From positions 130,432 to 194,431 of the IMG/VR virus record IMGVR_UViG_3300044878_000087: a stretch of 64,000 bases of DNA. One strand, 5' to 3'. The stretch comes from a virus (taxonomy: Duplodnaviria; Heunggongvirae; Uroviricota; Caudoviricetes). Made by a program: the position numbers and the translations under genes. Below the pieces are notes generated by a model. The model did no database searches. It was given only the letters and a program-made list of their open reading frames with translations, and had not been told where the DNA came from. Shown in pieces: positions 1,672 through 63,964 of the stretch (the first letter of the stretch is position 1; each line of letters opens with the position of its first letter).

Positions 1672-1866
1672 ATGAGCCTACACAAGTTGTTGGAAGCTGT
1701 AGAGCGCTTGGAGAACCTTACTCCAGAAGAGAAGCGCGCACTACACGAGCGTGCAGCCGAACGCATGCGTAAGTTTGATGAAGAATGTGCTGAACGTATT
1801 CGTAAGAGTATTCCATCACAAGAACTGTTGAACAAAGTTTGCAACTGGGGTACCCTATATGGCTGA
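1672..1866 (+). CDS. small helical hypothetical protein (64 aa, MSLHKLLEAVERL...)
   Basis: RBS AAAGGTAA upstream of the ATG at 1672; the ORF track start at 1597 probably lies too far upstream. Confidence 0.45.
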   Translation: MSLHKLLEAVERLENLTPEEKRALHERAAERMRKFDEECAERIRKSIPSQELLNKVCNWGTLYG

Positions 1867-1882
1867 GCAGCTACGGCTGCTC
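1865..1882 (+). terminator. hairpin GAGCAGC-TACG-GCTGCTC followed by the TTATGCCGCTATCCTAT box
   Basis: perfect 7-bp stem directly after the stop at 1866; same box as at 3938. Confidence 0.4.
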
Positions 1883-1926
1883 TTATGCCGCTATCCTATG
1901 TTAAAAATATATTAAAATAAAGGGAT

Positions 1927-2676
1927 ATGAGGAAGAGCATGTTTGAGGTACTATTAAGTGGTGGGGCACCCGCTACAAAAACAGTTTATCCCAATAGTGG
2001 CCCAGGCCCACAGACACTATTGTTAGGGGATGAGAATATCGGTTACTTTGGAGAGTTATCGGCCGGCGAAGTAATCACCAATGCTGACTTGAAGGCCTTC
2101 CTTAATCCATCGATGCAAAGTAGCGTTATGGTCGATAAAGGATGGTTTAAATGTTTCCACAAAGGCAAAGTAAAGTTTATCTCTAAAGGGGGTACATTTA
2201 CTAACACTGCATGGACTGCACTATATGCTTCCGGTGGCGTCTATGGTACCAATGACAATGGCTTATATCCAATCGGCACAGCTACAAACCAGTATAAGCC
2301 GTTTAACATCACTAATGGTCCTGTGACATGGAAATTGATTCCTAAGCTTATGTCAGGTGGTCAGAATGATCCTAGTAGTAGTTCCCCAGGGGATGATGGT
2401 AGCGAATATACCGATCTAATGTACCGTATGTTTACAGGCACCCATCCGAATGGAGGTGCATTCTTAAAGTATCTTAAAGCAGATGTTGCAATGAACTCGG
2501 CACATGCCTGCGTAGAATCGAAAGACACATTAACAACCAGCACCATTGTTCGTGGTTATACTGGCGTTATTAGTAACTCGGCACAGGTATTGACTAAAGG
2601 CGACAGATCCGGCTATGGGCAAATCTGTCGAATGGTTCTAGTAGTTGAGGGTGATCCAAAAGTCTTACCCGTATAA
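1927..2676 (+). CDS. paralog-family protein 3 (GPGPQTLLLGDENIGYFGEL...)
   Basis: RBS AAGGGA; homologous core to the 33 and 770 genes. Confidence 0.65.
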   Translation: MRKSMFEVLLSGGAPATKTVYPNSGPGPQTLLLGDENIGYFGELSAGEVITNADLKAFLNPSMQSSVMVDKGWFKCFHKGKVKFISKGGTFTNTAWTALYASGGVYGTNDNGLYPIGTATNQYKPFNITNGPVTWKLIPKLMSGGQNDPSSSSPGDDGSEYTDLMYRMFTGTHPNGGAFLKYLKADVAMNSAHACVESKDTLTTSTIVRGYTGVISNSAQVLTKGDRSGYGQICRMVLVVEGDPKVLPV

Positions 2677-2680
2677 GAAA

Positions 2681-2710
2681 TAAAGAAATACTGAGAGTGT
2701 AATAGTATAC
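2681..2710 (+). promoter_or_regulatory. plus-strand promoter-like motif TAAAGAAATAC-N14-TATAC
   Basis: one of five copies (2681, 4885, 6239, 6581, 7037); begins at or next to the upstream stop codon and precedes the tRNA cluster. Confidence 0.4.
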
Positions 2711-2827
2711 GAGAGACTGCCGTTAAAGTCTCCAAACGAGCGTAAGAGTAGGAATCCCCTATAGCCTACTCGACAGGGACCAGGGATATCGGTTAGCCTG
2801 GTTTAACAAAAACCCGACCAAGTTTCA

Positions 2828-2903
2828 GGGTGTGTAGTTCAATTGGCAGAGTAGCGCGCTCCAAACGCGTTGGTTCCAGGTTCGAGTCCAGCCATGCCCG
2901 CCA
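2828..2903 (+). tRNA. tRNA-Trp: tRNA-Trp (anticodon CCA), 76 nt; T-stem carries two mismatches
   Basis: acceptor GGGTGTG/CATGCCC (2 GU pairs), D arm GTTC/GAGT, anticodon arm GCGCG-CTCCAAA-CGCGT, T-loop GGTTCGAGTCC, 3' GCCA. Confidence 0.55.
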
Positions 2904-3623
2904 AACACCACAGACGTCAGTCTGCAAGTCCCCTGGCCTAACCCGCCTTGGGCACCTAAGTTAGTAGTTGAGATATCAGGAGGGTGGGTGTTGCGATTGC
3001 CTCCACTGGTCTGAATAGATCGCGTCAATCGGAATCTATAGTACTTAAAGCCGATTGAGGTAAAGTGGTAAGATCGTCATATCTCCGCTACAAACCCATT
3101 CTCCCTTGAGAGTGGTAAGACCCTCGCAATGGCGTGGGCAGGTCATACACCGATGCCTGATTAATCCTCAGACTAGGGCACCGAGCTGCATGGTGTGTGA
3201 TTATCGAACCCTAAGACGGTTGGCAAAAGATCAGAATAGCCGACTAGCAGGGAAGCTCAAAGCCCGATCCGACAAATACCCCAAAGACCTGATGATCCAG
3301 GTTACTAAGGCGTCATACCGAAGACACGTGAAGACTCGGCTGCAACGGATCAGATGTCCGTCACAGGTTGGCATGGAACAATAGTTCTGTGCGCAACCAC
3401 ATATTCTCAATTACTTGCCCTCCATCGTACTGAAGCTTTGCATGGCGAGTAAGTAGATAGACCTAACGAAACGGTTCGACCTCTAGCGGAATGCCGCGAC
3501 CAGCCCGTGCTGTACATTAGGATAAAAAGCTCGCCCAGCGGCGATCTACACCATACCCGCAATCTGCAGGAATGGATAACCAAGGCTTGAATCTTGGATG
3601 CTGGGAACGAATTTTAGAAACAC
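2904..3623 (+). ncRNA. ORF-poor ~700 bp spacer inside the tRNA cluster; candidate stable structured RNA(s), or degenerate intron/homing-endonuclease remnant
   Basis: no ORF >=60 aa except an Arg-rich 92-aa frame without an RBS; flanked by tRNAs; T4-type tRNA clusters are known to carry stable small RNAs. Confidence 0.3.
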
Positions 3624-3711
3624 GCGGGGATGGTGGAGCGGTATACGCAGCGGCCTTAAAAGCCGCCGCCCTTTACGGGCTCGCTGGGTTCGAATCCCGC
3701 TCCCCGCACCA
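3624..3711 (+). tRNA. tRNA-Leu: tRNA-Leu (anticodon TAA), class II with long variable arm
   Basis: acceptor GCGGGGA/TCCCCGC+ACCA; anticodon arm GCGGC-CTTAAAA-GCCGC; T-loop GGTTCGAATCC. Confidence 0.9.
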
Positions 3712-3717
3712 TATACA

Positions 3718-3805
3718 GGAAGCATGGCCGAGTGGCTCAAGGCAACGGTCTTGAAAACCGTCGGGTGTAATAGCCCCTAGAGTTCGAATCTCTATGCTTC
3801 CGCCA
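3718..3805 (+). tRNA. tRNA-Ser: tRNA-Ser (anticodon TGA), class II
   Basis: acceptor GGAAGCA/TGCTTCC+GCCA; anticodon arm ACGGT-CTTGAAA-ACCGT; T arm TAGAG-TTCGAAT-CTCTA. Confidence 0.9.
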
Positions 3806-3809
3806 GATC

Positions 3810-3885
3810 GCCGACATAGCTCAGATGGCAGAGCAACTGACTTGTAATCAGTAGGTCTTCGGTTCGATTCCGAATGTCGGCACCA
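3810..3885 (+). tRNA. tRNA-Thr: tRNA-Thr (anticodon TGT)
   Basis: acceptor GCCGACA/TGTCGGC+ACCA; anticodon arm ACTGA-CTTGTAA-TCAGT; T-loop GGTTCGATTCC. Confidence 0.9.
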
Positions 3886-3918
3886 GTTATTGTTATTGGC
3901 CTATAGAGCCCCTCGCTT

Positions 3919-3938
3919 GGCCTACCTTTGGGTAGGCT
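3919..3938 (+). terminator. hairpin GGCCTACC-TTTG-GGTAGGCT followed by TTTATGCCGTTATCCTATAC; likely terminator of the tRNA cluster
   Basis: GC stem followed by a T-rich tract immediately after the last tRNA. Confidence 0.5.
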
Positions 3939-3981
3939 TTATGCCGTTATCCTATACATTCTTTTAAGATGGATAACGGTA

Positions 3982-4887
3982 ATGTTTGAAGCACTATTAC
4001 TGGGTAAAGGTTCAAGTGCCCCAATTGGTGGTGCATGGTTAAAATTAGGCGGTTCATTTCCAGGCCGTTATGCTGGCGCCGGAGCAGTATCTGGCGGAAA
4101 GATATATTTATTCGGTGGATACAATGCCGGTGGCCCCACTTATTACAATGACATGCAGTGTTATGATCCTGCATTACAGACATGGTCAGCAAAAGCCACT
4201 GGACCAGCAGGGCGATACAACCACGTAATGGTAGAATGTAATGGATACCTATATCTCCATGGCGGTGTTAACGGTGGTGGCTATTTATCAGACATGTGGC
4301 GTTATGATCCTGTAGGTAATACATGGTTAGCTAGGGCTTCTACAGGTAGTGGTGGCCGTGATGGTGGTGCAATGGCGGCAGTCGGGACTAAGATCTATGC
4401 TGTTTGTGGATATGTTCCTAACGTCTATAGTACCGAAATGCGCATATATGACACGGTAGCAAACACCTGGTCATTAGGAACACCACTACCAGCAACAGGG
4501 CGTTCGAATGCCACAATGGTGGCGATTGGTACAAAGCTTTACTTGTATGCTGGTCAAGCGCCATCAATGAATGATTTGTGGTGTTTCGATACGGTGGCTG
4601 GAACATGGACACAACTGGCCGATGGTCCAAGTGCACGTACCAACCATACTGCTACGGTATTGAATGGCAAGATGTATATGCATGGTGGTTCAGGCACAGT
4701 GGAAGGTACATCTGCAAAATTCTATAGCTATGACCCTAACACAAATCTATGGACTACGCTAACGGCCAGTCCTACAGGTAGTCAACGTTCCGATGCTTGC
4801 CTAGTTGCGATGGATGGAAAGATTTATCTTACCGGTGGCTACAACCCACCAACGTACCCTACAGACATTTATCAGTTCACGCCATAA
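3982..4887 (+). CDS. Kelch-repeat beta-propeller protein (about 6 repeats: GG..G...ND...YDP..N.W)
   Basis: repeated Kelch motifs; ATG at 3982 preferred over the TTG at 3928 that falls inside the hairpin box. Confidence 0.75.
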   Translation: MFEALLLGKGSSAPIGGAWLKLGGSFPGRYAGAGAVSGGKIYLFGGYNAGGPTYYNDMQCYDPALQTWSAKATGPAGRYNHVMVECNGYLYLHGGVNGGGYLSDMWRYDPVGNTWLARASTGSGGRDGGAMAAVGTKIYAVCGYVPNVYSTEMRIYDTVANTWSLGTPLPATGRSNATMVAIGTKLYLYAGQAPSMNDLWCFDTVAGTWTQLADGPSARTNHTATVLNGKMYMHGGSGTVEGTSAKFYSYDPNTNLWTTLTASPTGSQRSDACLVAMDGKIYLTGGYNPPTYPTDIYQFTP

Positions 4888-4914
4888 AGAAATACCCTCA
4901 ACAAAAACTATATA
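4885..4914 (+). promoter_or_regulatory. plus-strand promoter-like motif TAAAGAAATAC-N13-TATAT (contains the Kelch stop codon)
   Basis: family member; about 50 nt upstream of the 4965 ATG. Confidence 0.4.
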
Positions 4915-4964
4915 GGGGACCTCCGGGTTTCCTTTATAGCCCAATACCCCAATAGGACTTTCCA

Positions 4965-5354: not shown

Positions 5355-6241
5355 TGGAAACACTACCATTGATATACAAAGAACACCTATCTGAACTGGA
5401 TCAATCCGTTAACTTCGAACATCGCATGACCGATCACAAAGGAATGTTAGAAGCACGTTACGTACGACGTAGCGATGATTACTTCATTGTTTATTTGTCG
5501 TCTCAAACAGGATGTAAACAAGCCTGTCGTATGTGTCATCTAACAGCTACGGGTCAAACAGATCTTCGCGACACTACTATCGAAGAATACTGGGATCAAG
5601 CTGATCGTGTACTGAGGTACTATGCTAACAAAACTCCTGCCCGGATGGTGCACTTTAACTTCATGGCTCGTGGTGAACCATTGGCTAATAAGATCTTCCT
5701 AGAGAATGCCGACTTGATTCTGCGTGGTCTAGCTAATCGGGCAAAAGCATTAGGGTTGGAATATAAATTCCTCATATCCACAATCTTCCCAAAAGAGTTT
5801 GATGTCTATGAACTCACCGATGTTTTTAAAGACCCTGCTTTAAGACCGGAACTTTATTACTCGTTGTATTCAACGGATCGTGACTTCCGTAGAAAGTGGC
5901 TAGGTAAAGCAATTGAACCTGGTATTGCACTTACCCTGCTCGGACGTTGGAATCGATCTACTGGTAAAGTACCTAAGATCCATTATGCATTCATTGATAA
6001 TGAAAACGATTCACTCGGTGATGTAAAGCGTTGCATTGATCTGATCCAGCATTATAACGTTCCCGTCAATTGGAACATTGTTCGATATAATCCACCTAAC
6101 GATAAATCGAAAGAGACCATCGAAGGACAAATCAATTACCTGGCTGGTTACATTCGTAGTCGTCTACCGAAGGCACGAGTGAAAGTAATCCCACGGGTCG
6201 GTACAGATGTAAAAGCCAGCTGTGGTACGTTCTTGAAATAA
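5354..6241 (+). CDS. radical SAM enzyme, RlmN/Cfr-like RNA methyltransferase core (SSQTGCKQACRMC...; C-terminal ASCG), lacking the usual N-terminal domain
   Basis: CxxxCxxC preceded by the RlmN/Cfr SSQ.GC hallmark and a C-terminal Cys in an (A/S)CG context; RBS GAGGA; alternative start at 5330. Confidence 0.7.
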   Translation: METLPLIYKEHLSELDQSVNFEHRMTDHKGMLEARYVRRSDDYFIVYLSSQTGCKQACRMCHLTATGQTDLRDTTIEEYWDQADRVLRYYANKTPARMVHFNFMARGEPLANKIFLENADLILRGLANRAKALGLEYKFLISTIFPKEFDVYELTDVFKDPALRPELYYSLYSTDRDFRRKWLGKAIEPGIALTLLGRWNRSTGKVPKIHYAFIDNENDSLGDVKRCIDLIQHYNVPVNWNIVRYNPPNDKSKETIEGQINYLAGYIRSRLPKARVKVIPRVGTDVKASCGTFLK

Positions 6242-6268
6242 AGAAATACTACAGTCGGTATCATATAC
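6239..6268 (+). promoter_or_regulatory. plus-strand promoter-like motif TAAAGAAATAC-N14-TATAC (overlaps the radical-SAM stop)
   Basis: family member. Confidence 0.35.
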
Positions 6269-6277
6269 GACCAGAGC

Positions 6278-6400
6278 ATGTGTTGTAAGCGGTTTGCATG
6301 CGCATGGTGGAAGAGACACATACAAACGACGGCTGTCAACTGTCGAACCGAATGCCTTATTTACGCATGTGACAATGTGTCTATTAAGGAAGTCGTGTAG
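6278..6400 (+). CDS. possible 40-aa Cys-rich peptide (MCCKRFACAWWKRHIQTTAVNCRTECLIYACDNVSIKEVV), immediately downstream of the radical SAM gene
   Basis: ATG about 10 nt after the TATAC element (would be near-leaderless); weak RBS; 6 Cys in 40 aa. Confidence 0.25.
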   Translation: MCCKRFACAWWKRHIQTTAVNCRTECLIYACDNVSIKEVV

Positions 6401-6551
6401 CCAAGCACTACGGAGATGACCTATCCTGCTGATTGCAGGGGCTTTGAAGTAGTACCACTGGAACGCGGCGCCGGATAACACCGTGATCCCTGATTACTTG
6501 GGGAAAAGCTGGCCGGCCATGGAGATATCTGGTTTAACTTACGCAACGAGT

Positions 6552-6567
6552 CTCACCTGCGGGTGGG
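6552..6567 (+). terminator. hairpin CTCACC-TGCG-GGTGGG followed by ACTTTATGCAGCGTAAAG
   Basis: hairpin plus TTTATGC box family. Confidence 0.45.
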
Positions 6568-6580
6568 ACTTTATGCAGCG

Positions 6581-6610
6581 TAAAGAAATACTCGCGGTAA
6601 TACAATATAC
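6581..6610 (+). promoter_or_regulatory. plus-strand promoter-like motif TAAAGAAATAC-N14-TATAC
   Basis: family member; upstream of the 6677 gene. Confidence 0.4.
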
Positions 6611-7007: not shown

Positions 7008-7027
7008 GAGTTCCCTTCGGGGAGCTC
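7008..7027 (+). terminator. hairpin GAGTTCCC-TTCG-GGGAGCTC (UUCG loop) followed by TTATGCCGTTAAAAG
   Basis: family member. Confidence 0.5.
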
Positions 7028-7036
7028 TTATGCCGT

Positions 7037-7066
7037 TAAAAGAATACTGGCGGTGTCAGTGTATGT
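7037..7066 (+). promoter_or_regulatory. plus-strand promoter-like motif TTAAAAGAATAC-N14-TATGT (variant), upstream of rtcB
   Basis: extended similarity to the 6581 copy over about 40 nt. Confidence 0.35.
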
Positions 7067-9738: not shown

Positions 9739-11625
9739 ATGAAAACTGCATCTGAAATTCTCTCAGCTATCACGTTCGCCATTCAAGAAGTCGCTAGCCC
9801 TCTGGCGAAAGTTCCACCAGACTTCGGCTTGCGTGTAGCGCGTCACCTGCAAGGCACACCGTTCAACTACTCAACCAGTACTTCGACTCAAGGTCCTGAT
9901 GAGTTCATCATCTTCCTGGATGACTTCAAACAGAAAGACTGGATGGTAACGATCAAAATCCAAGGTGACTTCCAGTATACACTGGATGGCCCACATGAAG
10001 TAGGTCGCGATATCCCGGACACTGAAGAACTAAAAGCTCCAGAGGGACCTATCGTTCCTGGTGAACCAGAGATCACTGTAGCTCAAGCCATGGCCCGTAT
10101 CCGTGCTGCAATCGCAAGTGACGAAGGTTATGCATGGGGTTGGCAGTCTAATCTGGCGATGCCAATCTTGGATGACCTGGGTGTTAATCACAAACTGGCT
10201 AATCGTGCTGGTGCCCGCCTGCTGCAACACTTGTTCGGTTACGATATTACCAAGCAAAAAGAATACACTGATATCCAAAACCGTGTTGAAACCACCACGG
10301 TAGAAGATGATGTCGCTGACAGTATGCTCCACATCACTGTGACAGGTTACAAAGCCAATTCTGGCGCAGAAGAACTGTCACGTCGTTTGGCCGAGTATCT
10401 GAAGATGGGTGGTTATGAGGCACTGATCAATATCGCAGATACCACACTGGCCGGGGAAGAACGCTCAGTGGCACTGCCGCCAGAAGGTGTACGTATTCAT
10501 GTAACTGGCGTTGAATCTCGCTGGCATTCTGATCGTGTTGCTGAACCGGAAGATGTAGATATCCCATGTGGTGAAGGTGATGACTTCGGTGGCGACGATC
10601 CTTTAGATAGCGCTGATTCAGATGGTCCATGGGAAGTAGAAAGTGGTGCATTCGAATCTCAACCTAAACTTACACTACATGTAACCATCCCGAAGTATGA
10701 GTGTAACCCAACTCAAATCATCGATGCGTTGCGTGATCAGTATCCTGATGCTGACATCAGTGCCAAGATCAAACTTGATAACTTCGGTTGCGACTCGATC
10801 AAGGCTAACGCTGCCCTCAAGAAAGCTGTACGGTTCACTATCCATCCAGATGATCCAAATCCAGCAGCTACTATTGGGTACCTGCAGAACGAGTTCCGTA
10901 AAGCCTACGGCCTGGAACCAGTTATTCCAACCGTAGCTGAGCACCGCATTGGTTATGTAGAACCAATGGTGACGGATAGTGGTGAAGATACCGTCGAGTC
11001 TACGATTCAACCTACACTGACTATGGTCAAGGAAAAGATGATGCTATCTAATCCTGAGGATCGTGCCAATGCTTATCTCTTCGAACGTCGTGAAGGGGAT
11101 ACCTATCGGAACGTGTTGTTCCATGTTGACGTAGATGCAGAAGGTTTCGATGTTGAGCAGATCACTGGTGAAGGCTGGGGTATCGTAGAAGCATCACCTG
11201 GAGTATTCAATACCCTCCTGGAAAAAGTATCTCCGGAAGTTGTTCGATACTCGTTGGACTTGTACGAGAACAATGCTCGTTGGTTGAACCGTTTCGGCGA
11301 CGGTAAAGAGATCGCTACTCGTACACATGAAGGTCCATTCACACTGTACACTATCGGACAAGGAGCAATCCCAAAAGCGATCTATGGTGAAGTGGAAGAA
11401 TGCTGGACTGCTTTCCAAAACATCGATCGTCTACAGGAGCTCTCTGAGGAACTACGCGATCCATCTATTGTTATCGGGGCAGAAGACTACCTCAAGATAA
11501 CTCATGGTGGTTGCATGACAGTACGCGAACACCCGCGGTTGGAAGAACTGTTCTTGAAGTATATTCACTACAAGGCAACGTTCAACCCACTGATCGATCG
11601 TTGGATTAAATCTTTCGGTCTGTAA
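9739..11625 (+). CDS. large acidic hypothetical protein (628 aa)
   Basis: RBS AAGGAAG; long ORF. Confidence 0.6.
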   Translation: MKTASEILSAITFAIQEVASPLAKVPPDFGLRVARHLQGTPFNYSTSTSTQGPDEFIIFLDDFKQKDWMVTIKIQGDFQYTLDGPHEVGRDIPDTEELKAPEGPIVPGEPEITVAQAMARIRAAIASDEGYAWGWQSNLAMPILDDLGVNHKLANRAGARLLQHLFGYDITKQKEYTDIQNRVETTTVEDDVADSMLHITVTGYKANSGAEELSRRLAEYLKMGGYEALINIADTTLAGEERSVALPPEGVRIHVTGVESRWHSDRVAEPEDVDIPCGEGDDFGGDDPLDSADSDGPWEVESGAFESQPKLTLHVTIPKYECNPTQIIDALRDQYPDADISAKIKLDNFGCDSIKANAALKKAVRFTIHPDDPNPAATIGYLQNEFRKAYGLEPVIPTVAEHRIGYVEPMVTDSGEDTVESTIQPTLTMVKEKMMLSNPEDRANAYLFERREGDTYRNVLFHVDVDAEGFDVEQITGEGWGIVEASPGVFNTLLEKVSPEVVRYSLDLYENNARWLNRFGDGKEIATRTHEGPFTLYTIGQGAIPKAIYGEVEECWTAFQNIDRLQELSEELRDPSIVIGAEDYLKITHGGCMTVREHPRLEELFLKYIHYKATFNPLIDRWIKSFGL

Positions 11626-11646
11626 CAAAAAAAAATAAGGCATATT

Positions 11647-11666
11647 GGCTCTCCTCGAGGAGAGCC
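11647..11666. terminator. bidirectional palindromic hairpin GGCTCTCC-TCGA-GGAGAGCC at the convergence point of the + and - blocks; flanks CATATT / TTTATGCC
   Basis: perfect 8-bp stem between convergent stops (11625 and 11684); near-identical copy at 60020. Confidence 0.5.
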
Positions 11667-11683
11667 TTTATGCCGTAACAAAG

Positions 11684-12193
11684 TTACATTGGGGTAATCG
11701 ATACACCTTCTGGCAATTCATGAATGTAGCGAACTTGTCCACTCATCATTACCAGGAAGCCTGCAATCGGAGTACCGGCGGCATGAATGTTCAGAGACAC
11801 GAAACCAGCAACATCTTCAGTCAGTGCACCTGGCCACCGTTGAATGAAATGGAAACAGACATCGTCACCATTCTTCAACAGTTCACCAAATGCATCAATG
11901 ATCAGAGTTCTACGAGCTTGAGACATATCCACTCGGCCAGTGGATTCAATCTCGGTGTAACGAAGGAATGCTTCACGCGTCAAGCACCATTCTTGTGGAT
12001 TCGCTGCGCCAGCCGTACCACGGGTTTGAATCTTTACACGTATCACGTTTGCATCACCCATAGTCACGACAGCCACATCGCCATCGAGTCTTTGGATAGA
12101 ACCACGTAACAGGTTACCAGTTGCCGAGTAATACTCAACTGGTACCGATTGATCTTTTTGGGCGTAGAATGCTGCCAGAGCTTTCAGGTGCGA
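11684..12193 (-). CDS. hypothetical protein (about 170 aa from MSHLKALAAF)
   Basis: RBS AAGAGG before the internal ATG; the track start at 12259 probably lies too far upstream. Confidence 0.55.
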   Translation of the reverse strand, partial: SHLKALAAFYAQKDQSVPVEYYSATGNLLRGSIQRLDGDVAVVTMGDANVIRVKIQTRGTAGAANPQEWCLTREAFLRYTEIESTGRVDMSQARRTLIIDAFGELLKNGDDVCFHFIQRWPGALTEDVAGFVSLNIHAAGTPIAGFLVMMSGQVRYIHELPEGVSITPM

Positions 12194-12206
12194 CATGGTC
12201 AGCCTC

Positions 12207-12416: not shown

Positions 12417-12435
12417 GTAATATAGATCTGAGATT
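12417..12435 (-). promoter_or_regulatory. minus-strand promoter-like motif AATCTCAGATCTATATTAC
   Basis: 19-nt element repeated at 36427 and 63897 (variants at 55677, 41612, 29186, 60384); about 45 nt upstream of a start codon. Confidence 0.4.
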
Positions 12436-13205: not shown

Positions 13206-13394
13206 TTATTTGCGAATGACTCCGCCTTGAATAGCACAAATGCCGAACCAGATCAATGCACTACCAATCCAGTAATCCCAGGTATGCATATCGAAATGCA
13301 AACCGTAGCGTTGTTCCAAACCGGTTTCAATGCACAGCACACACAGAACCAATAATGCAAACTTACCAAGCGTCATAACAGCTCCAGACGGCAT
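13206..13394 (-). CDS. small membrane protein (62 aa)
   Basis: hydrophobic ORF. Confidence 0.4.
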   Translation of the reverse strand: MPSGAVMTLGKFALLVLCVLCIETGLEQRYGLHFDMHTWDYWIGSALIWFGICAIQGGVIRK

Positions 13395-13525
13395 AAAGCC
13401 AGCACAGCGGCTGGCTTTATAAATAGGTGGGAGTCGCGTGGCACCAACACACCGACGGGTAGGTGATAAGTTGGGAGATGTTCCACGGATTCCCGGTTCG
13501 TCTATATATAGTTGTACATAGACTA

Positions 13526-14528: not shown

Positions 14529-14567
14529 AGCGTTCCTCTTTTCGTTCAATGGTCTTAACAACATAAA

Positions 14568-14585
14568 GCCTACCCGAAGGTAGGC
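14568..14585 (-). terminator. hairpin GCCTACC-UUCG-GGTAGGC followed by TTTATGTTGTTAAG
   Basis: family member on the - strand. Confidence 0.45.
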
Positions 14586-14759
14586 CGATGATTGTGTCTG
14601 GCAACCCAGACCACTGGCAACAGTCGATGACCGATGCCGAGTAGGTGAAGGGAATCTAACCCTACTAGTCGTTTTGCACTAAATTGTTAAAGAGCAGATC
14701 AAGAGAAAGGAAACAACACATGCAGTATCACCACATATATAGTTGTGCACTTTTCTCAA

Positions 14760-16592: not shown

Positions 16593-16649
16593 CTTTAAAA
16601 ACTCCTAATGTGTTTGATTCTATTGTTGTGATATAGCCTTCAGATGCTT

Positions 16650-17229: not shown

Positions 17230-17257
17230 TCTTAGTTTCTCATTAGACGAAATAAAT

Positions 17258-17275
17258 GCAGCCCCGAAGGGCTGC
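17258..17275 (-). terminator. hairpin GCAGCCC-UUCG-GGGCTGC followed by ATTTATTTCG
   Basis: located 3 nt after the stop of the 17278 gene. Confidence 0.45.
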
Positions 17276-18804: not shown

Positions 18805-18962
18805 ACCGAGATCAGCGCCAGTGTGAACGCGGTGTATCCGAACGTTGCAGCCAACACCTTACCAGCCAAGTGGTTGTAGCGATGGTTAGTCAGCATCACA
18901 AGCCAGGTTATCCAGAACCCGAAGGTCATAAAGATCGACCCTATCGTAAAACCAGAAAGCAT
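18768..18962 (-). CDS. small membrane protein (64 aa)
   Basis: hydrophobic ORF. Confidence 0.4.
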   Translation of the reverse strand: MLSGFTIGSIFMTFGFWITWLVMLTNHRYNHLAGKVLAATFGYTAFTLALISVCVYFMNHGILY

Positions 18963-18983
18963 AAAACCCCCAAACGAAATAAG

Positions 18984-19001
18984 GCGAGCCCGAAGGCCCG
19001 C
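18984..19001 (-). terminator. hairpin GCGGGCC-UUCG-GGCTCGC followed by a U-rich tract
   Basis: after the stop of the 19005 gene. Confidence 0.45.
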
Positions 19002-20498: not shown

Positions 20499-20525
20499 AG
20501 CTTACTCCATAAGACGACATAAAGA

Positions 20526-20541
20526 TGAGCCCGAAGGCTCA
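20526..20541 (-). terminator. hairpin TGAGCC-UUCG-GGCTCA (overlaps the stop of the 20539 gene) followed by CTTTATGTCGTCTTATGG
   Basis: family member. Confidence 0.4.
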
Positions 20542-20835
20542 CCCTGCAAAATCAAACTCGAACACAGCATCCGAGCTTTGGCGTGAAACGTTCCACAGCA
20601 TCACGTAGTATTCCCCAGCTGGTTGTTTCAGCTTCTTGAGGAACTTGGTGAGTTCAGCAGGCTCATTCACATAGCCTGATGCCATCATCATACCCACGTG
20701 ATAGTCTGCGGTATCAGCGATCGTATTGCTGGTGCCCTTAGGACACCACAACAACCGCTTAACCTTGGACGCTTCACATACTTGACCGATTGGGTCTTTA
20801 CCCGCCCGGTCACGACACACGCGGACTACGTGCAT
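20539..20835 (-). CDS. hypothetical protein (98 aa)
   Basis: ORF. Confidence 0.5.
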   Translation of the reverse strand: MHVVRVCRDRAGKDPIGQVCEASKVKRLLWCPKGTSNTIADTADYHVGMMMASGYVNEPAELTKFLKKLKQPAGEYYVMLWNVSRQSSDAVFEFDFAG

Positions 20836-23295: not shown

Positions 23296-23506
23296 TTACT
23301 TGTTCCTTAGTAACGTAGAAATCGATTCCGTCTTTACCCTTGACGTTTAGGGTATTGCCGAGGTCTTCGATGAGTTCTAACTCATCACCTTTACTAGCGG
23401 CTGTTACGCCACCTTCAACTTCCCCGAAGGAAAGCTTGATGTCTTCTTTAGCTGTTAATGCCATCGACCCATACATCCTTACTGAAACCACGAGAAGCAC
23501 TGGCAC
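23279..23506 (-). CDS. small hypothetical protein (75 aa or shorter from an internal ATG)
   Basis: ORF; start uncertain. Confidence 0.4.
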   Translation of the reverse strand: MPVLLVVSVRMYGSMALTAKEDIKLSFGEVEGGVTAASKGDELELIEDLGNTLNVKGKDGIDFYVTKEQVNGYCS

Positions 23507-24076: not shown

Positions 24077-24156
24077 GTTGATACTCCTAGATTGTCAATA
24101 ATGTCGCTCTCGTTACCAATCAGTAATGTAGAGCTGTAATTTTTTGCAACATAAAA

Positions 24157-24174
24157 GAGTCCCCGAAGGGACTC
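24157..24174 (-). terminator. hairpin GAGTCCC-UUCG-GGGACTC followed by TTTTATGTTGCAAAAAATTAC
   Basis: located 3 nt after the stop of the 24178 gene. Confidence 0.45.
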
Positions 24175-24177
24175 CAT

Positions 24178-28735: not shown

Positions 28736-28788
28736 TGCTTTTCCTTAATTTCACACAAAAAGAAAATGGGCCCCTGGTGGCCCACCTT

Positions 28789-29205: not shown

Positions 29206-29248
29206 TTTTAAATCAAGCTTTATTTGCAATAAAAAAAGACAGCATAAG

Positions 29249-29266
29249 GCCTCCCCGAAGGGAGGC
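29249..29266 (-). terminator. hairpin GCCTCCC-UUCG-GGGAGGC followed by TTATGCTGTCTTTTTTTATTGC
   Basis: GC stem plus a U-run, 7 nt after the stop of the 29274 gene. Confidence 0.5.
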
Positions 29267-31129: not shown

Positions 31130-31157
31130 GCAACCTCACAAAAGAAAACAACAGAAA

Positions 31158-31177
31158 GCCTACCCCGAAGGGTAGGC
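31158..31177 (-). terminator. hairpin GCCTACCC-UUCG-GGGTAGGC followed by TTTCTGTTGTTTTC
   Basis: after the stop of the 31186 gene. Confidence 0.45.
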
Positions 31178-36396: not shown

Positions 36397-36426
36397 TGCT
36401 TTGCTCCTATAACAGATGCAATCAAG

Positions 36427-36445: not shown

Positions 36446-36476
36446 TTTGCAGTAGAAAAAAAAAGAGGGGCAGAAT

Positions 36477-36494
36477 GCCTCCCCGAAGGGAGGC
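36477..36494 (-). terminator. hairpin GCCTCCC-UUCG-GGGAGGC followed by a T9 run
   Basis: 7 nt after the stop of the 36502 gene; GC stem plus U tract. Confidence 0.5.
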
Positions 36495-36501
36495 AGACTA
36501 C

Positions 36502-40713: not shown

Positions 40714-40987
40714 CGATCAGCTCCGCTTTATCAGGTTGCATGGCCAGATCCTTTTCGTAACGGATCTCAGCGGTATGTATCTGACGCAGGGCAAACGAGT
40801 TCAAGTTCCAGATGGTACTGAACAAGTTCCACCACAGCATGATAATAACCCACTTAGGCCATTTGCCGTTCTCTTGCTGGATGCTTTGCAGTGCGGCAAT
40901 TGCACCCAATCCGCACAACACCCAAACCAAAGACAACCACGCCTGTGTATAAATACCAAACCACATCTTTTCATTCCTTGTAAACAA
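40694..40987 (-). CDS. membrane protein (97 aa)
   Basis: hydrophobic ORF. Confidence 0.45.
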   Translation of the reverse strand: MFTRNEKMWFGIYTQAWLSLVWVLCGLGAIAALQSIQQENGKWPKWVIIMLWWNLFSTIWNLNSFALRQIHTAEIRYEKDLAMQPDKAELIDARPAN

Positions 40988-41016
40988 GTGAGCCCTCTTT
41001 CGAGGGCCCTTGTTAG

Positions 41017-41611: not shown

Positions 41612-41630
41612 GTAATATAGGCTTAAAAAT
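41612..41630 (-). promoter_or_regulatory. minus-strand promoter-like element CCTATATTAC (tandem TAATAT copies), upstream of the 41578 gene
   Basis: -10-like core shared with the other copies. Confidence 0.4.
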
Positions 41631-41653
41631 GATTTAAATAAAAAACGACATAA

Positions 41654-41673
41654 GGCTTCCCACAGGGGAAGCC
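41654..41673 (-). terminator. hairpin GGCTTCCC-CUGU-GGGAAGCC followed by TTATGTCGTTTTTTATTT
   Basis: perfect 8-bp stem plus a U-run after the stop of the 41680 gene. Confidence 0.5.
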
Positions 41674-42216: not shown

Positions 42217-42275
42217 TGCGAATTCTCACACTGCGGTGCCCGCCTCGGATTGAGACGGGCTACCGTATGCTTAAA

Positions 42276-46814: not shown

Positions 46815-46824
46815 CCAGAATAAA

Positions 46825-46843
46825 GCCTCCCCATAAGGGAGGC
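46825..46843 (-). terminator. hairpin GCCTCCC-UUAUG-GGGAGGC followed by TTTATTCTGG
   Basis: after the stop of the thymidylate synthase gene. Confidence 0.45.
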
Positions 46844-46852: not shown

Positions 46853-48313
46853 TTATACAGCCACAGGTGCTTCAATGGCAGGCTGTGGATTGTAGCCCAC
46901 AACTTCCAAGTCATGATAAGTCATGTCGAGGATCGAAGTACCGATTGGGAGTTTGATGTTCAACCGAGGTAGCTCATTATGCGGTGTGCGCTCTTGTTGT
47001 TCTCTTACCTGATCTAGATGGTTCAGATAAATGTGAGCATCGCCGACCATGTGCACGAGTTCTTCACCGTACATGTTGAATTGATGTGCCAGCTTGTGCG
47101 TCAAAGACGAATAGAACGTCAGGTTGTATGGTGCACCCAAGAACACGTCATTAGAACGCATATAGAAGATGCAAGTCAAGCCACGACGTGGAACATTCAG
47201 TTCATCGAGATAAGCATGGAGTTTATGCTCATCCCGTTTATAAGAACCATCTTCCACATGCATGAACACACCCAATGGATACGGTTCATGTGTCGTATAG
47301 ATGTCAGCACGACTACGCTTTGCGATGTCACTATGCAGCTCATCACGTTCACGCATCCAACGCTTCACGTAAATGTCATAGCGTTTTTCAGCAGACAGCT
47401 CACGCGTCCAGAACTGAATGAACGAGTGGCATGGAGGTAAAGCTTGTTCATCTACATACGCTGGGTTCCATGGGCACAGAATCAAGCGACGGGAATCTGG
47501 ATTGTTTTCCAGATCACGCAATAAGTTAGCTACCTGATCGATCTTACGAGTCATGCAGCGCTCATAACCTGAATCCATTGCAATCGTAAACCCGCGAGCT
47601 TTCATCTTCTCAGTAAGGGCTTCAAATTCTGCAATGGCGATATCTTGCTCTTCTGGATTACTCCACGAACCACACTTGATGTGACGGGTGTCTTCGATGT
47701 TACGGAACATCTCACCGTAGACTTTACCGAGTTCACCATCAACTACTTCTTGATCAGAGATACCCAGAGCTACGAAGAACTTGAACCAGATTGGATCTTC
47801 TTGATCCATCCAACTCATCCAGTTCTTGGCATCCTCGGTTTTGTCGAAAATGCCGTGGTGCTTCTTGATCCCTGGGGTTCCTACGTATTCGTAGATATTA
47901 AAGTCATCGCTTTCATAGACAAGTGTCCATACTGGTACAACGTCAGGCGTAGCACCAATGTCTAATACTACTGGCCGATCCCAACCGAAATGGTTACGCT
48001 TGTAGACACGACGCATTTCTTTCAGCAAACGTGGGCGATAGGTACCCGTACCTTCCAGTACCCATTCATCCCAGATGTTACAGTTGTTCTCTTTCAAGAA
48101 CTTCAGGCGGGTATCACCGGAGATCATCCAGTCTTCTTCGACCTGACCAGTTTTCAGATGAATCTTTTTGGTCGACACTGCAGCCAAGCGATAATCACTG
48201 ATGTCATAACGACGCATAACACCAGGTGCAGAAATTGTACCCGTTTTGGTGCGGTCTTCTTTTTGTGTACCACGATGCAGAACTTCCGTCTGCATAGTCA
48301 AGTAGTCTTTCAC
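46853..48313 (-). CDS. thymidylate synthase family enzyme (ThyA or dUMP hydroxymethylase-like) with a ~110-aa insertion after the NIWDEW motif
   Basis: N-terminal MKDYL..VL..GT.K.DRT.TGT; LPPCHSFIQFW active-site Cys; RSNDVFLGAPYN (Asn suggests uracil specificity). Confidence 0.8.
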   Translation of the reverse strand: MKDYLTMQTEVLHRGTQKEDRTKTGTISAPGVMRRYDISDYRLAAVSTKKIHLKTGQVEEDWMISGDTRLKFLKENNCNIWDEWVLEGTGTYRPRLLKEMRRVYKRNHFGWDRPVVLDIGATPDVVPVWTLVYESDDFNIYEYVGTPGIKKHHGIFDKTEDAKNWMSWMDQEDPIWFKFFVALGISDQEVVDGELGKVYGEMFRNIEDTRHIKCGSWSNPEEQDIAIAEFEALTEKMKARGFTIAMDSGYERCMTRKIDQVANLLRDLENNPDSRRLILCPWNPAYVDEQALPPCHSFIQFWTRELSAEKRYDIYVKRWMRERDELHSDIAKRSRADIYTTHEPYPLGVFMHVEDGSYKRDEHKLHAYLDELNVPRRGLTCIFYMRSNDVFLGAPYNLTFYSSLTHKLAHQFNMYGEELVHMVGDAHIYLNHLDQVREQQERTPHNELPRLNIKLPIGTSILDMTYHDLEVVGYNPQPAIEAPVAV

Positions 48314-48921: not shown

Positions 48922-48955
48922 TTAATGCTCCTAATGACAAAAAAGAAAATAGGAT

Positions 48956-48973
48956 GGGGACCCGAAGGTCCCC
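48956..48973 (-). terminator. hairpin GGGGACC-UUCG-GGTCCCC followed by ATCCTATTTTCTTTTTTG
   Basis: GC stem plus a U-run after the stop of the NAMPT-like gene. Confidence 0.5.
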
Positions 48974-48979
48974 GTCCGA

Positions 48980-55640: not shown

Positions 55641-55676
55641 ACATGGTCCTAAAATTCTCCTTTGGTATCAAGTTAG

Positions 55677-55695
55677 TTATATAGATTTCAGATTT
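55677..55695 (-). promoter_or_regulatory. minus-strand promoter-like motif AAATCTGAAATCTATATAAC (variant of the 19-mer family), upstream of the homing endonuclease gene
   Basis: family resemblance. Confidence 0.4.
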
Positions 55696-56373: not shown

Positions 56374-56572
56374 TGAGATGAATTAGAGCACCTGCAATGA
56401 TTGCCACCACACTACCAGCAACAACCGGTTTGTTAGTTCCCAACATATCGCCAAAGCCGAAAAAGAATCCCATGAATCCCAGGGTAATTAAGGTTGTTCC
56501 GAATGTTTCCATATAAATCTCGATACATGAAAAGGGACATAAAGCCTTCCGCGAGGGAAGGCTAAATATCAA
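56363..56572 (-). CDS. small membrane protein (69 aa)
   Basis: hydrophobic ORF. Confidence 0.4.
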   Translation of the reverse strand: MIFSLPSRKALCPFSCIEIYMETFGTTLITLGFMGFFFGFGDMLGTNKPVVAGSVVAIIAGALIHLIGV

Positions 56573-59299: not shown

Positions 59300-59464
59300 C
59301 CATGTTACAGAATAAAAGCCTCCCTCCTTTGCTCTTAGTGGGACTGTTCACCTATACTAAGAGGAGGCTGAGTATAAAAAAGAAAAAATGAGTAGTATGG
59401 ACTCCCCTAACCCGAAGGCCAGAGGAGTCCATTCCGAATAGGAAGAACTATGCTGATGAAACCC

Positions 59465-59994: not shown

Positions 59995-60019
59995 AGCTTA
60001 CTCCTTGCTGGGACATATT

Positions 60020-60039
60020 GGCTCTCCCGGAGGAGAGCC
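60020..60039. terminator. palindromic hairpin GGCTCTCC-CGGA-GGAGAGCC with flanks CATATT / TTTATGCG; near-identical to the element at 11647
   Basis: about 32-nt match (CATATTGGCTCTCC..GGAGAGCCTTTATGC) to the convergence-point element. Confidence 0.45.
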
Positions 60040-60383: not shown

Positions 60384-60400
60384 GTAATATAGTCCCCAGA
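60384..60400 (-). promoter_or_regulatory. minus-strand sigma70-like promoter CTGATT-N17-TATATT (core GACTATATTACG)
   Basis: lies in the 66-bp gap between the 60411 stop and the 60344 start. Confidence 0.4.
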
Positions 60401-62603: not shown

Positions 62604-62612
62604 TACAACTCC

Positions 62613-63587
62613 TTAGTAGGTACGAGGGAACAGCCCATTGTCGCGAGTGTGGAAAGTCTTACGACCTTCTGGGCGATTGAAGAAATATTTGTTGCCATAG
62701 ACACCATGCATCAACATACCGTGATTTTGTTCACCATCAATGACGAACTCAATCCGATCAAGATCCAGTGTGACTTTCCGGTTAGGGAACTCAGCCTGGA
62801 CGATGTCGTTCAAGATATAGTAGATGTTCAGCACCTGGTTTTCCTCTAACATTCCTGTTAGATCCAACGTCAAACGGTACGACTTCTTTTCATGCAACCC
62901 CTGACCTTTATCGATCAGTACGACTATGGAATCATCATGATCCATTTCGCTAAGGGTGTATATCTCACGCAGACCTTTCCGAACAGGAACAGAAGACACA
63001 GCGGTTAATGCGACACTACTATCGATAACCTCGCGGTTATCCAGTGTCAACCGATGTATGAACCACTGACCGCCGTATTGGTCCAACAGGTCCATCATAA
63101 CCCAACCGTAGCGACCTATGTCACTGGTAATAGCCCGTTTGGTCCATAACCTTAGTTGGTCACCGGCATTGCTATTTATTGTGGCATACCACTTAACACC
63201 GTCAGGATCAGTGTAAATGTGGATACCTTCATGTGTCGCCAGCTGACGGAGCACATGGATTTGATCCTTCAACAAAGCAACATTCCCCATCACATCTGGT
63301 GAATGCTCCAGGTACTTCACGTGGGACGCGCCATTGCGGGTATGGAACACGAAGCTATACTGAGATATATCGGCATCCTCATTCATCGATACCCGGCCAA
63401 TCTCTAGACCTTCGCCCATACGGTGCAAACCAATGTATGGTGCATAACCGTAGGACACGGATTCCAGAAAAACCAACCATTGGTTCTTATTAGAATCGGT
63501 AGCGATTGCGAAGTCAACATCGTGTAGGTGCAGTACACGATTTAACCAAGCATGTTTCCCTTCAAAGAAACGCCTGCGAATACTCAT
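62613..63587 (-). CDS. hypothetical protein (324 aa)
   Basis: long ORF. Confidence 0.6.
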   Translation of the reverse strand: MSIRRRFFEGKHAWLNRVLHLHDVDFAIATDSNKNQWLVFLESVSYGYAPYIGLHRMGEGLEIGRVSMNEDADISQYSFVFHTRNGASHVKYLEHSPDVMGNVALLKDQIHVLRQLATHEGIHIYTDPDGVKWYATINSNAGDQLRLWTKRAITSDIGRYGWVMMDLLDQYGGQWFIHRLTLDNREVIDSSVALTAVSSVPVRKGLREIYTLSEMDHDDSIVVLIDKGQGLHEKKSYRLTLDLTGMLEENQVLNIYYILNDIVQAEFPNRKVTLDLDRIEFVIDGEQNHGMLMHGVYGNKYFFNRPEGRKTFHTRDNGLFPRTY

Positions 63588-63590
63588 TAG

Positions 63591-63860
63591 TCAAAACCCC
63601 TTAAGTGTTAGACCTAGTTCGAAACGCTTTTCGATTACCCGAATACGATCAGTTAGGAAATCTAACTCATCATTCAGGAGCACTACGGCGGAGAGGAACT
63701 CTTTACTACGTCCCACAAACCGTTCCGATTCTTTATCGAATTCGATTGTGTAACGCGCTGCCTTTGCATGCAGGAGTTCCAGTTCTTTCCTTAATTGTGC
63801 TAGACGGGTTGTTCTCCGACGCATATTAAGGCGAAGCTTTATAAATGCGCGAATGCCCAT
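63591..63860 (-). CDS. hypothetical protein (89 aa); first gene after the promoter at 63897
   Basis: ORF. Confidence 0.45.
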   Translation of the reverse strand: MGIRAFIKLRLNMRRRTTRLAQLRKELELLHAKAARYTIEFDKESERFVGRSKEFLSAVVLLNDELDFLTDRIRVIEKRFELGLTLKGF

Positions 63861-63896
63861 CTTTTTATTTTCCTTTATTGAATTAATGCCAAGAGG

Positions 63897-63915
63897 ATAA
63901 TATAGATCTGAGTTT
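63897..63915 (-). promoter_or_regulatory. minus-strand promoter-like motif AAACTCAGATCTATATTATC
   Basis: third copy of the CTCAGATCTATATTA core; lies between terminator 63947 and the ATG at 63860. Confidence 0.45.
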
Positions 63916-63946
63916 CTTTCGAGTACAAAAAAAAATACAACATAGA

Positions 63947-63964
63947 GCCTCCCCGAAGGGAGGC
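63947..63964 (-). terminator. hairpin GCCTCCC-UUCG-GGGAGGC followed by an A9/T9 run
   Basis: same stem sequence as the 29249 and 36477 copies; follows a stop near 63968. Confidence 0.5.

Follow-up and report, generated by a model that had tools for sequence, protein, structure and literature searches.

GC-rich hairpins with a conserved tail in a phage related to Psa21 and D6 are probable intrinsic terminators of the phiKZ type

What is the function of a hairpin that recurs behind gene after gene in a phage genome, and why should the few nucleotides that follow it be conserved as well? The question is raised by a 64,000-nucleotide stretch of a tailed-phage genome (positions 130,432 to 194,431 of IMG/VR record IMGVR_UViG_3300044878_000087; hereafter the window), in which an original prediction, made from the letters of the sequence, had described at least 19 GC-rich stem-loops with UUCG or similar loops, placed after stop codons and followed by a box of the form TTTATG(C/T)CGTTA. 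The hairpins were proposed to be intrinsic terminators or RNA-stability elements, and the box to be an additional recognition site for a protein or an RNase. The first of these proposals proved right in that the elements agree in both sequence and structure with the terminator motif conserved in phages phiKZ and 201phi2-1. Judging from this homology, we put at roughly 0.85 the probability that they are factor-independent intrinsic terminators of the kind that phiKZ-like jumbo phages (Chimalliviridae) have conserved.

By its closest relatives, Pseudomonas phages Psa21 and D6 among them, the window derives from a chimallivirus. Its DNA similarity within the phage collection is confined to D6 (74-77%) and, more weakly, to Psa21 and RVTF4, and the same three phages are the closest relatives by protein similarity and gene order, with a block encoding an AAA-ATPase, PRPP synthetase, NAMPT, thymidylate synthase and an RNA ligase that is collinear in all four. 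Psa21 is a Tepukevirus within the Chimalliviridae, the family that also holds phiKZ (Phikzvirus).

In phiKZ, 133 termination sites have been mapped by ONT (Oxford Nanopore Technologies)-cappable-seq (Putzeys et al. 2024, Microlife; PMC10914365), and 61 intrinsic terminators share the motif 5'-BCCYCCCCHWWDGGGRRGGBYTTATKYYGT-3' (E=1.7e-212), a stem-loop followed by a TTAT region (PMC10914365). Phage 201phi2-1 has a motif A (n=59, E=2.6e-250) that "strongly resembles" the phiKZ motif and a co-occurring motif B that makes the hairpin longer; in uninfected P. chlororaphis, a terminator trap showed activity for eight of its terminators, six of them equal to or better than lambda T0 (PMC11512511). 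The window stems fit the BCCYCCCC-HWWD-GGGRRGGB form of the published motif (GCCTCCC/GGGAGGC, GCCTACC/GGTAGGC and GGCTCTCC/GGAGAGCC, with four-nucleotide loops). Conversely, a covariance model built from seven window copies with the same geometry (R1) detects elements directly 3' of annotated stop codons in phiKZ, 201phi2-1, Psa21 and D6, with scores of up to 44 bits for phiKZ and 37.6 bits for 201phi2-1. The 44-bit element, at phiKZ 23521, reads CATATC GCCTCCC TTCG GGGAGGC TTTATGTTGTTAA, to which the window copies at 14568 and 29249 are very close, and the six 201phi2-1 terminators named in PMC11512511 all carry the motif. An exact-pattern scan of IMG/VR returned 15 stretches, and for 11 of these the contig was 267-315 kb long. 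In both phiKZ and 201phi2-1, RNA 3' ends map to the hairpins, which speaks for termination.

The hairpin family of the window is real, although some of its details had been overstated. A GC-rich stem-loop is present at all 19 sites first listed; with short flanks, their RNAs have folding energies of -14.2 to -21.7 kcal/mol, and relative to dinucleotide shuffles their z-scores lie between -2.9 and -5.9. The stems are 6-8 bp long, as had been predicted, and the loop is TTCG at 12 of the 19 sites and TACG, TTTG, TGCG, TCGA, CTGT, TCCG or TTATG at the rest. The octamer CCTTCGGG occurs 15 times in the window against 1.25 expected, a count reached by none of 100 shuffles, and loop polarity does track transcription: all 15 copies lie on the local coding strand, one on the plus strand within the plus-strand gene block (1 to ~11.6 kb) and 14 on the minus strand of the minus-strand block. 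This invariable use of the coding strand points to selection on RNA rather than on the DNA duplex. R1 found 13 further sense copies at E<0.1, or 20 with its seven seeds, and in a direct-repeat search of the window the largest families were the terminator elements and their adjoining promoters. (An alignment of 21 copies by MAFFT was dropped because it put the stems out of register, and a permissive hairpin scan, whose 158 hairpins were mostly noise, was replaced by stricter rules and the covariance model.)

With weaker variants included, we count about 26 elements (Table 1), most of them at the ends of genes or short units and on the coding strand. Seven were absent from the first list (~13392-13421, 56543-56563, 4914-4939, 28767-28784, 40990-41009 and two in 59300-59435). 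A search of Rfam with the window found no family for the element and matched only four tRNAs. The placement 0-10 nt after a stop codon held for 13 of the 19 sites and failed for six: site 3919 is preceded by tRNA-Thr instead of a stop codon, at sites 6552 and 14568 the last called gene ends 310 nt and about 175 nt upstream, with no convincing open reading frame (ORF) between, and sites 7008, 11647 and 60020 lie 19, 21 and 14 nt past their stop codons. Identical stems are indeed shared among copies, GCCTCCC/GGGAGGC being found four times (29249, 36477, 46825 and 63947) rather than three.

Some hairpins and loop words in the window stand apart from this family. Two more CCTTCGGG words lie within coding sequence (23414-23432 and 18918-18925, both on the minus strand); the word at 23423 is part of a small hairpin, CTTTCC-TTCG-GGGAAG, that lies without a TTAT tail at the overlap of two genes and may be due to chance or be an internal attenuator. 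At 42238-42260 (minus strand), 15 nt past a stop codon and 21 nt ahead of the next gene, is a strong hairpin, GCCCGTCTC-AATCC-GAGGCGGGC, likewise without a TTAT tail. The flanks of this hairpin are identical (GCATACGGTA ... ACCGCAGTGTGAGA) to those at Psa21 locus L002, 23818-23840, where the loop alone differs (ATGTC), and it may represent a different regulatory RNA structure.

Orthologous junctions in the relatives allow both parts of the element to be compared. For 12 window elements the same gene junction could be located in D6, Psa21 or RVTF4, and there is a hairpin at each. Its stem is often different but compensated, while the TTCG loop and the tail are kept. After the NAMPT gene, for example, the stem is GGGGACC/GGTCCCC in the window and GGGTCCC/GGGACCC in Psa21, and after the RNA ligase gene it begins CGGACC in the window, AGCCACC in D6, GTAGGCC in Psa21 and GCGGGACC in RVTF4, with the type of loop and tail constant. 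In 45 copies drawn from five phages, pairing extends to 96.9% of stem cells, and double-sided changes affect 59 cells versus 7.2 in shuffles, a signal that collapses in slid controls. Because the stems covary while the tail stays constant, the tail must be under selection across the family. Its A is sometimes T or C in orthologues (TTTTTG, TTTCTG). The box does not vary freely in related phages, and this outcome, too, favors the terminator reading.

The box itself is looser than first described. The two words that had been reported as recurring, TTTATGCCGTTA and TTTATGTTGTTA, have one exact occurrence each in the window, and the consensus is better written YTTATKYYGT. The core TTATKYYGT has 16 occurrences (4.8 expected), of which 11 are directly 3' of a hairpin. 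When hairpins are picked irrespective of their tails, T[ATC]TKYYG follows 11 of 19 in the window against a background of 1.5%. TTATG is replaced by TTATT or TTCTG at five of the 19 listed sites, tails of TTCTG or a plain T-run are seen in a minority of copies, and site 48956 has no box beside its stem.

The role of the box becomes clearer when the published 3' ends are laid over it. Six 201phi2-1 termination sites have coordinates printed in PMC11512511, and each of the six coincides with the second Y of TTTATGY[Y]GT, 8 nt past the stem and 2 nt past the G of TTATG. At 22 phiKZ motif terminators, from the part of Table S4 that we used, the called sites run from K-4 to K+3 around TTAT[K] and are most often at K+1; these tables were machine-read from a bioRxiv supplement with small errors, and the offsets hold to within ~1 nt. 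The phiKZ terminator T057, placed by genome coordinate, again ends at the second Y. Since the mapped 3' ends fall inside the box, the box is the terminator's 3' tail and release point in these relatives. Conservation continues past the 3' end: among hairpins picked irrespective of tail, the next base is G in 32/65 and the one after it T in 45/65, and in the window this G follows 7-9 tail nucleotides, mostly 8. Bases that lie beyond the released RNA are more likely to be recognized on the DNA or by the transcribing complex than on the RNA. The original prediction was correct that the box is conserved, whereas the extra protein or RNase site that it drew from this conservation is unneeded, given 3' ends inside the box.

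Sequence upstream of the stem appears to contribute as well. The complement of the tail, (C)ATAA, precedes many copies, minimum-energy folds often include the resulting lower helix, and at 31158 and 36477, where the tail is TTCTG, the upstream AGA or TAG preserves the pairing. On average the flanks add -3.9 kcal/mol (-5.3 in the window) versus -2.8 with shuffled upstream flanks (0/200 reach the observed value) and -3.5 when flanks are swapped between elements (9/200; 0/200 for the window). An initial test that counted ungapped pairs beside maximal stems showed nothing and was biased by construction. The pairing seen in the energy test agrees with the finding that motif B of 201phi2-1 lengthens the hairpin.

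From what is seen in the relatives, termination would proceed as follows. The nascent RNA would form a GC-rich stem of 7-8 bp, in most cases closed by an extra-stable UUCG tetraloop and often extended by a weaker lower helix between the upstream (C)AUAA and UUAUG of the tail. Release would occur about 8 nt past the stem, at the second pyrimidine of (Y)UUAUKY[Y] and just ahead of the conserved G. The box would then consist of the element's own 3' tail and the first template positions past release: U-rich with one tolerated A, then YY, the release point and G. Multisubunit RNA polymerases pause at sites with G at -10, Y at -1 and G at +1. A G in the last stem positions followed by U-rich sequence, YY and G would fit this pattern. 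The existence of a pause consensus shared by these enzymes is reviewed in PMC6336406. A hairpin at the RNA 3' end would also shield the transcript from 3' exonucleases, and at convergent gene ends palindromic flanks (CATAA-stem-TTATG) would let one element terminate both ways. The loop differs between these settings: in a set of 81 hairpin-strands from the window and seven loci of relatives, picked by stem quality and post-stop position irrespective of tail, TTCG is found at 31/57 hairpins in tandem context versus 3/24 at convergent ends, where the loops are mostly others, such as the palindromic TCGA at 11647.

Several observations weigh against intrinsic termination as the full explanation. 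Termination in the window phage is deduced from the homology of its elements, and the 3' ends obtained with ONT in the relatives could, taken alone, equally reflect processing or exonuclease trimming; in phiKZ, the calls also spread over about 8 nt. That YY and G represent the pause consensus is something that we infer here. The tails make poor canonical U-tracts, with at least five T in the first eight bases at only 9/19 sites, and a simple terminator consensus scan flagged 3/8 sites in the first 20 kb. Finally, a box that is detached from its hairpin after the NAMPT gene of D6 and RVTF4 is accounted for neither by a terminator nor by any other explanation that we considered.

The hairpin at this NAMPT junction (48922-48979 on the minus strand of the window; D6 locus L003, 16506-16568; RVTF4 locus L008, 6201-6259) is followed by AaCCTaYTTTTCTTTT rather than by the box. 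In D6 and RVTF4, TTTTATGYCGT appears ~18 nt past the stem, immediately ahead of the Shine-Dalgarno sequence that serves the next gene; at that position, the window and Psa21 have TTTTTTGTC or TTTTTTGTTGT.

A stronger version of the terminator reading, which we consider unlikely, holds that the tail is more than a weak U-tract and serves as a dedicated signal that the non-canonical RNA polymerases of the phage read, stalling and then releasing the RNA between YY and G. In phiKZ, the beta-like subunit GP123 recognizes the TATG of late promoters in the non-template strand, in a base-specific manner (PMC12809450). A GP123-like subunit could capture T-A-T-G of the tail in the same pocket during elongation and stall the enzyme, with release a few bases later, akin to sigma-dependent promoter-proximal pausing in bacteria. 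If so, termination would be sequence-specific, the virion and non-virion polymerases might not respond alike, and the stage of infection could serve to tune it. RNA polymerase genes lie outside the window, and the relatives were not searched for them.

The same TATG suggests quite another function, which we judge to be quite improbable: the box could be a phiKZ-type late promoter within a compact terminator-promoter junction, from whose G the non-virion RNA polymerase would restart to transcribe the next gene. The phiKZ enzyme does require TATG with G at +1 (PMC4666361; PMC12809450), many window elements are separated from the start codon that follows by 15-40 nt, which contain a Shine-Dalgarno sequence but no further promoter motif, and the detached TTTTATGYCGT of D6 and RVTF4 is just 5' of a ribosome-binding site. 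Two phiKZ late start sites, P049 and P075, are even located at a second TATG 12-14 nt past a terminator stem (NC_004629, ~94318-94330 and 145645-145659; …CTTATGCTATG and …TTATAATGCTATG in the published tables), from which it follows that termination and late initiation can be only a few bases apart. The wider start-site table argues against the idea, however. Among the 119 sites P008-P126 of phiKZ Table S3, 52 end in TATG and none has a GC-rich hairpin at a distance below 12 nt; the G of the tail, by contrast, sits 5-7 nt past the stem. In the set of 81 hairpin-strands, TATG is also commoner in tails at convergent ends (19/24) than at tandem ones (23/57; background 3.6%), and because a promoter at a convergent end would only make antisense RNA, TATG there fits a terminator tail. 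Each single substitution in TATG strongly cut late-promoter activity (PMC4666361), but orthologous and paralogous tails read TTTTG, TTCTG or TATT, so that the tail does not require all four bases. Moreover, the mapped 3' ends are 2 nt downstream of the supposed +1 G, the model late promoter P119L of phiKZ has no upstream hairpin, and phiKZ late promoters show no conservation past TATG, unlike the YYGT of the box (PMC4666361). A promoter in the box was our first lead, and we rejected it on the enrichment at convergent ends, the replacement of A by T or C in orthologues, the mapped 3' ends and the start-site table.

We regard as very improbable the remaining functional alternative, that an RNase or RNA-binding protein recognizes the box and that this factor, rather than termination alone, makes or protects the 3' ends. 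The conservation does exceed what a U-tract needs, with an A at a fixed position and then K, YY and G, and sequencing of 3' ends leaves termination and processing indistinguishable. Exonucleases, too, typically stall several nucleotides 3' of a stable hairpin. Against such a factor, the 201phi2-1 elements terminated transcription in uninfected P. chlororaphis, where phage proteins are absent, and did so at least as well as lambda T0 in the majority of cases (PMC11512511). The 3' ends are 8 nt past the stem, as in ordinary intrinsic termination, and the conserved G and T that follow are outside the released RNA. We know of no candidate factor for the box.

Scarcely credible is the idea that the copies are alike mainly by common descent, as intergenic cassettes of terminator and early promoter that were spread or homogenised by recombination and that shuffle small early genes, in which case sequence conservation would say little about function: the repeated identical stems, the 94% identity of the 33-nt copies at 11641 and 60014, a near-identical early-promoter motif 20-70 nt downstream of five elements and the mostly small, functionally unassigned adjoining genes are in its favor, but stems diverge with compensation across genera and orthologous junctions while loop and tail persist, which indicates selection on structure and tail rather than recent copying, and a cassette property would add to termination, not replace it.

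Two promoter-like motifs of the phiKZ type also recur in the intergenic regions of the window. The first, CTATATTAC, has five exact and four one-mismatch copies, all intergenic and all on the minus strand. It lies within AATCTCAGATCTATATTAC, and its longer consensus is (T-run)...GCAAAAAATCTCAGATCTATATTAC, to be compared with AATCTCAGATTTATATTAC in 201phi2-1; several copies are 20-70 nt past a terminator. By its sequence, AATCTCAGATCTATATTAC is a predicted early promoter of the phiKZ/201phi2-1 type, almost that of 201phi2-1 itself. The second motif, AAAGAAATAC(T), directly follows stop codons or terminators in the plus-strand block and has TATAC or TATG ~14-18 nt further on; the middle-promoter-like motifs of the window can be written AAAGAAATACT. 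The motif resembles the phiKZ middle-promoter motif, which is A-rich and then has TACT ~22 nt before the start site (PMC8244752; PMC4666361), and this suggests that the block encoding tRNAs and RtcB may be middle-expressed. Three stretches of about 300, 160 and 100 nt run from a promoter-like motif to a terminator with no convincing ORF, the two on the minus strand starting near ACAACTATATAT. They have no Rfam match and could be small RNAs, like the short terminated transcripts of 5' untranslated regions reported in phiKZ and 201phi2-1.

Table 1. Positions in the window of predicted terminators, promoter-like motifs and other features. R1, score or E-value with the covariance model; energies are for predicted RNA folds.
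Position	Strand	Predicted feature	Stem; loop; tail (or motif)	Scores and context
1865..1892	+	terminator	GAGCAGC/GCTGCTC; TACG; TTATGCCGCT	-17.1 kcal/mol; R1 E=0.21; stem start overlaps TGA stop codon
2683-2691, 4887-4895, 6241-6249, 6583-6591, ~7040	+	middle-promoter-like motif	AAAGAAATAC(T)	4-5 copies in plus-strand block
2828-3885	+	tRNA cluster		Trp, Leu, Ser, Thr
3919..3948	+	terminator closing tRNA cluster	GCCTACC/GGTAGGC; TTTG; TTTATGCCGTTA	R1 48.1 bits; 33 nt past tRNA-Thr
4914..4941	+	weak variant	GGGGACC/GGTTTCC (two G-U pairs); TCCG; TTTATAGCC	R1 E=1.8
6250-6571	+	promoter-like motif to terminator, no convincing ORF		
6548..6581	+	terminator of ~300-nt ORF-less unit	AGTCTCACC/GGTGGGACT; TGCG; TTATGCAGCG	-16.5 kcal/mol; R1 E=0.88
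7008..7037	+	terminator	GAGTTCCC/GGGAGCTC; TTCG; TTATGCCGTT	R1 43.9 bits; then middle-promoter-like AAAAGAATACT
11637..11676	both	bidirectional terminator	GGCTCTCC/GGAGAGCC; TCGA (palindromic); TTTATGCCGT (+), AATATGCCTT (-)	R1 matches on both strands; between convergent genes 9739-11625 (+) and 11684-12196 (-); kept in D6 and Psa21 with compensatory stem changes
12417-12425, 16628-16636, 24123-24131, 29186-29194, 36426-36434, 41612-41620, 55676-55684, 60384-60392, 63897-63905	-	early promoter motifs	CTATATTAC	
13385..13421	-	terminator, absent from first list	AAGCCAGC/GCTGGCTT; CGCTGT; TATGCCGTC	R1 E=0.094; tail TTATGCCGT retained in D6 and Psa21
13392-13500	-	promoter-like motif to terminator, no convincing ORF		
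14557..14586	-	terminator	GCCTACC/GGTAGGC; TTCG; TTTATGTTGTTA	R1 48.1 bits
14567-14730	-	promoter-like motif to terminator, no convincing ORF		
17247..17275	-	terminator	GCAGCCC/GGGCTGC; TTCG; ATTTATTTCGT	-17.4 kcal/mol; R1 E=0.04
18974..19001	-	terminator	GCGGGCC/GGCTCGC (7 pairs, one G-U); TTCG; CTTATTTCGT	R1 E=0.006
20513..20543	-	terminator	GGTGAGCC/GGCTCATC; TTCG; TTTATGTCGT	R1 E=0.008; stem contains stop codon TGA
24146..24175	-	terminator	GAGTCCC/GGGACTC; TTCG; TTTTATGTTGC	R1 29.7 bits; directly joined to early-promoter-like motif; conserved in D6 and Psa21
28756..28785	-	variant with ordinary U-tract	TGGGCC/GGCCCA; ACCAGG; TTTTCTTTTTGTG	same tail in D6 orthologue
29239..29266	-	terminator	GCCTCCC/GGGAGGC; TTCG; CTTATGCTGT	-21.5 kcal/mol; R1 47.6 bits; upstream CATAAG pairs with tail
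31148..31177	-	terminator	GCCTACCC/GGGTAGGC; TTCG; TTTCTGTTGT	-20.7 kcal/mol; R1 32.2 bits; upstream AUAGA pairs with UCUGU
36467..36495	-	terminator	(T)GCCTCCC/GGGAGGC(A); TTCG; TTCTGCCCC	-21.7 kcal/mol; R1 42.6 bits; tail, then T-run and early promoter
40980..41009	-	post-stop-codon hairpin without box, membership doubtful	GGGCCCTC/GAGGGCTC; GAAA; ACTTGTTTAC	
41644..41673	-	terminator, then early promoter	GGCTTCCC/GGGAAGCC; CTGT; TTATGTCGTT	R1 44.5 bits
44179..44205	-	terminator after RNA ligase gene	CGGACC/GGTCCG; TTCG; TTTATGCCAT	
46815..46843	-	terminator after thyA	GCCTCCC(T)/(G)GGGAGGC; TTATG (or triloop TAT); TTTATTCTGG	R1 E=0.0055
48946..48973	-	hairpin after NAMPT gene	GGGGACC/GGTCCCC; TTCG; ATCCTATTTTCTTTTTTG	-20.0 kcal/mol; no adjoining TTATG box
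56533..56563	-	terminator, absent from first list	AGCCTTCC/GGAAGGCT; CTCGC; TTATGTCCC	R1 32.3 bits, E=4e-6
59305..59435	-	two tandem long-stem terminators	CC-TTCG-GG tip, then T-run (59394-59435); AGCCTCC...GGAGGGAGGCT, tail TTTATTCTGT (~59305-59352)	
60010..60039	-	terminator	GGCTCTCC/GGAGAGCC; TCCG; AATATGTCCC	-20.9 kcal/mol; R1 E=0.45
63937..63964	-	terminator	GCCTCCC/GGGAGGC; TTCG; TCTATGTTGT	R1 46.0 bits; then T-run and early promoter

Two features of the neighboring genes deserve mention. Within the tRNA cluster, ~720 nt between tRNA-Trp (end 2903) and tRNA-Leu (start 3624) carry no confident gene call; the matching region of D6 and Psa21 holds tRNAs and HNH endonuclease genes. The thymidylate synthase gene (46853-48313, minus strand) encodes 486 amino acids that match the family profile of 335 positions over its whole length, which implies a large insertion in the protein; the orthologues in Psa21, D6 and RVTF4 are likewise long (1401-1425 nt).

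Taken with the early and middle promoter motifs, the predicted terminators delimit transcription units in an otherwise uncharacterised relative of Psa21 and D6, and they flag the three short units without an ORF as candidate small RNAs. They also extend the terminator word of Phikzvirus and Serwervirus to a Tepukevirus-like lineage. For engineering purposes, elements of this kind may provide compact and strong terminators in Pseudomonas.

How does the window element compare with known systems? With the phiKZ terminators it shares the GCCYCCC/GGGRGGC-type stem, the tetraloop, the YTTATKYYGT tail, the position on the coding strand after a stop codon and the frequent presence of an early promoter downstream. 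The phiKZ genome, by contrast, is AT-richer and has a larger share of A/T-rich loops (TTAT, ATTGC, CTAG), where the window has TTCG at 12 of the 19 listed sites, and the phiKZ copies carry mapped 3' ends, whereas those of the window are known from sequence; phiKZ belongs to another genus, with no detectable DNA similarity to the window outside such motifs. Phage 201phi2-1, of the genus Serwervirus, matches the window in hairpin, tail, stem-lengthening upstream (C)ATAA and nearly in its early promoter, and differs in that activity was measured there, in a terminator trap with the host RNA polymerase. Elements of this kind thus already have published experimental support from two genera within one family, and what is new here is its presence in a Psa21/D6-like phage together with some detail of the tail. 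The promoter-early stem-loop (PeSL) cassettes of T4-type phages are similarly repeated intergenic stem-loops followed by an early promoter and flanking small early genes, and Arbiol and colleagues reportedly described them in 2010 as recombination substrates for modular shuffling; their sequences are unrelated to the window elements. Canonical Rho-independent terminators have in common with the window element a GC-rich hairpin, release 7-9 nt past the stem and A-rich upstream and U-rich downstream flanks that can pair, and bidirectional ones are used in both directions at convergent gene ends, as is predicted for the element at 11647. They differ in the tail: instead of a plain U-run, the window has a conserved word, UUAUGYYGU, in which one A and one G are fixed. 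Within the set of phages compared here and in PMC10914365, this word is specific to those of the phiKZ-like group, which use their own non-canonical RNA polymerases.

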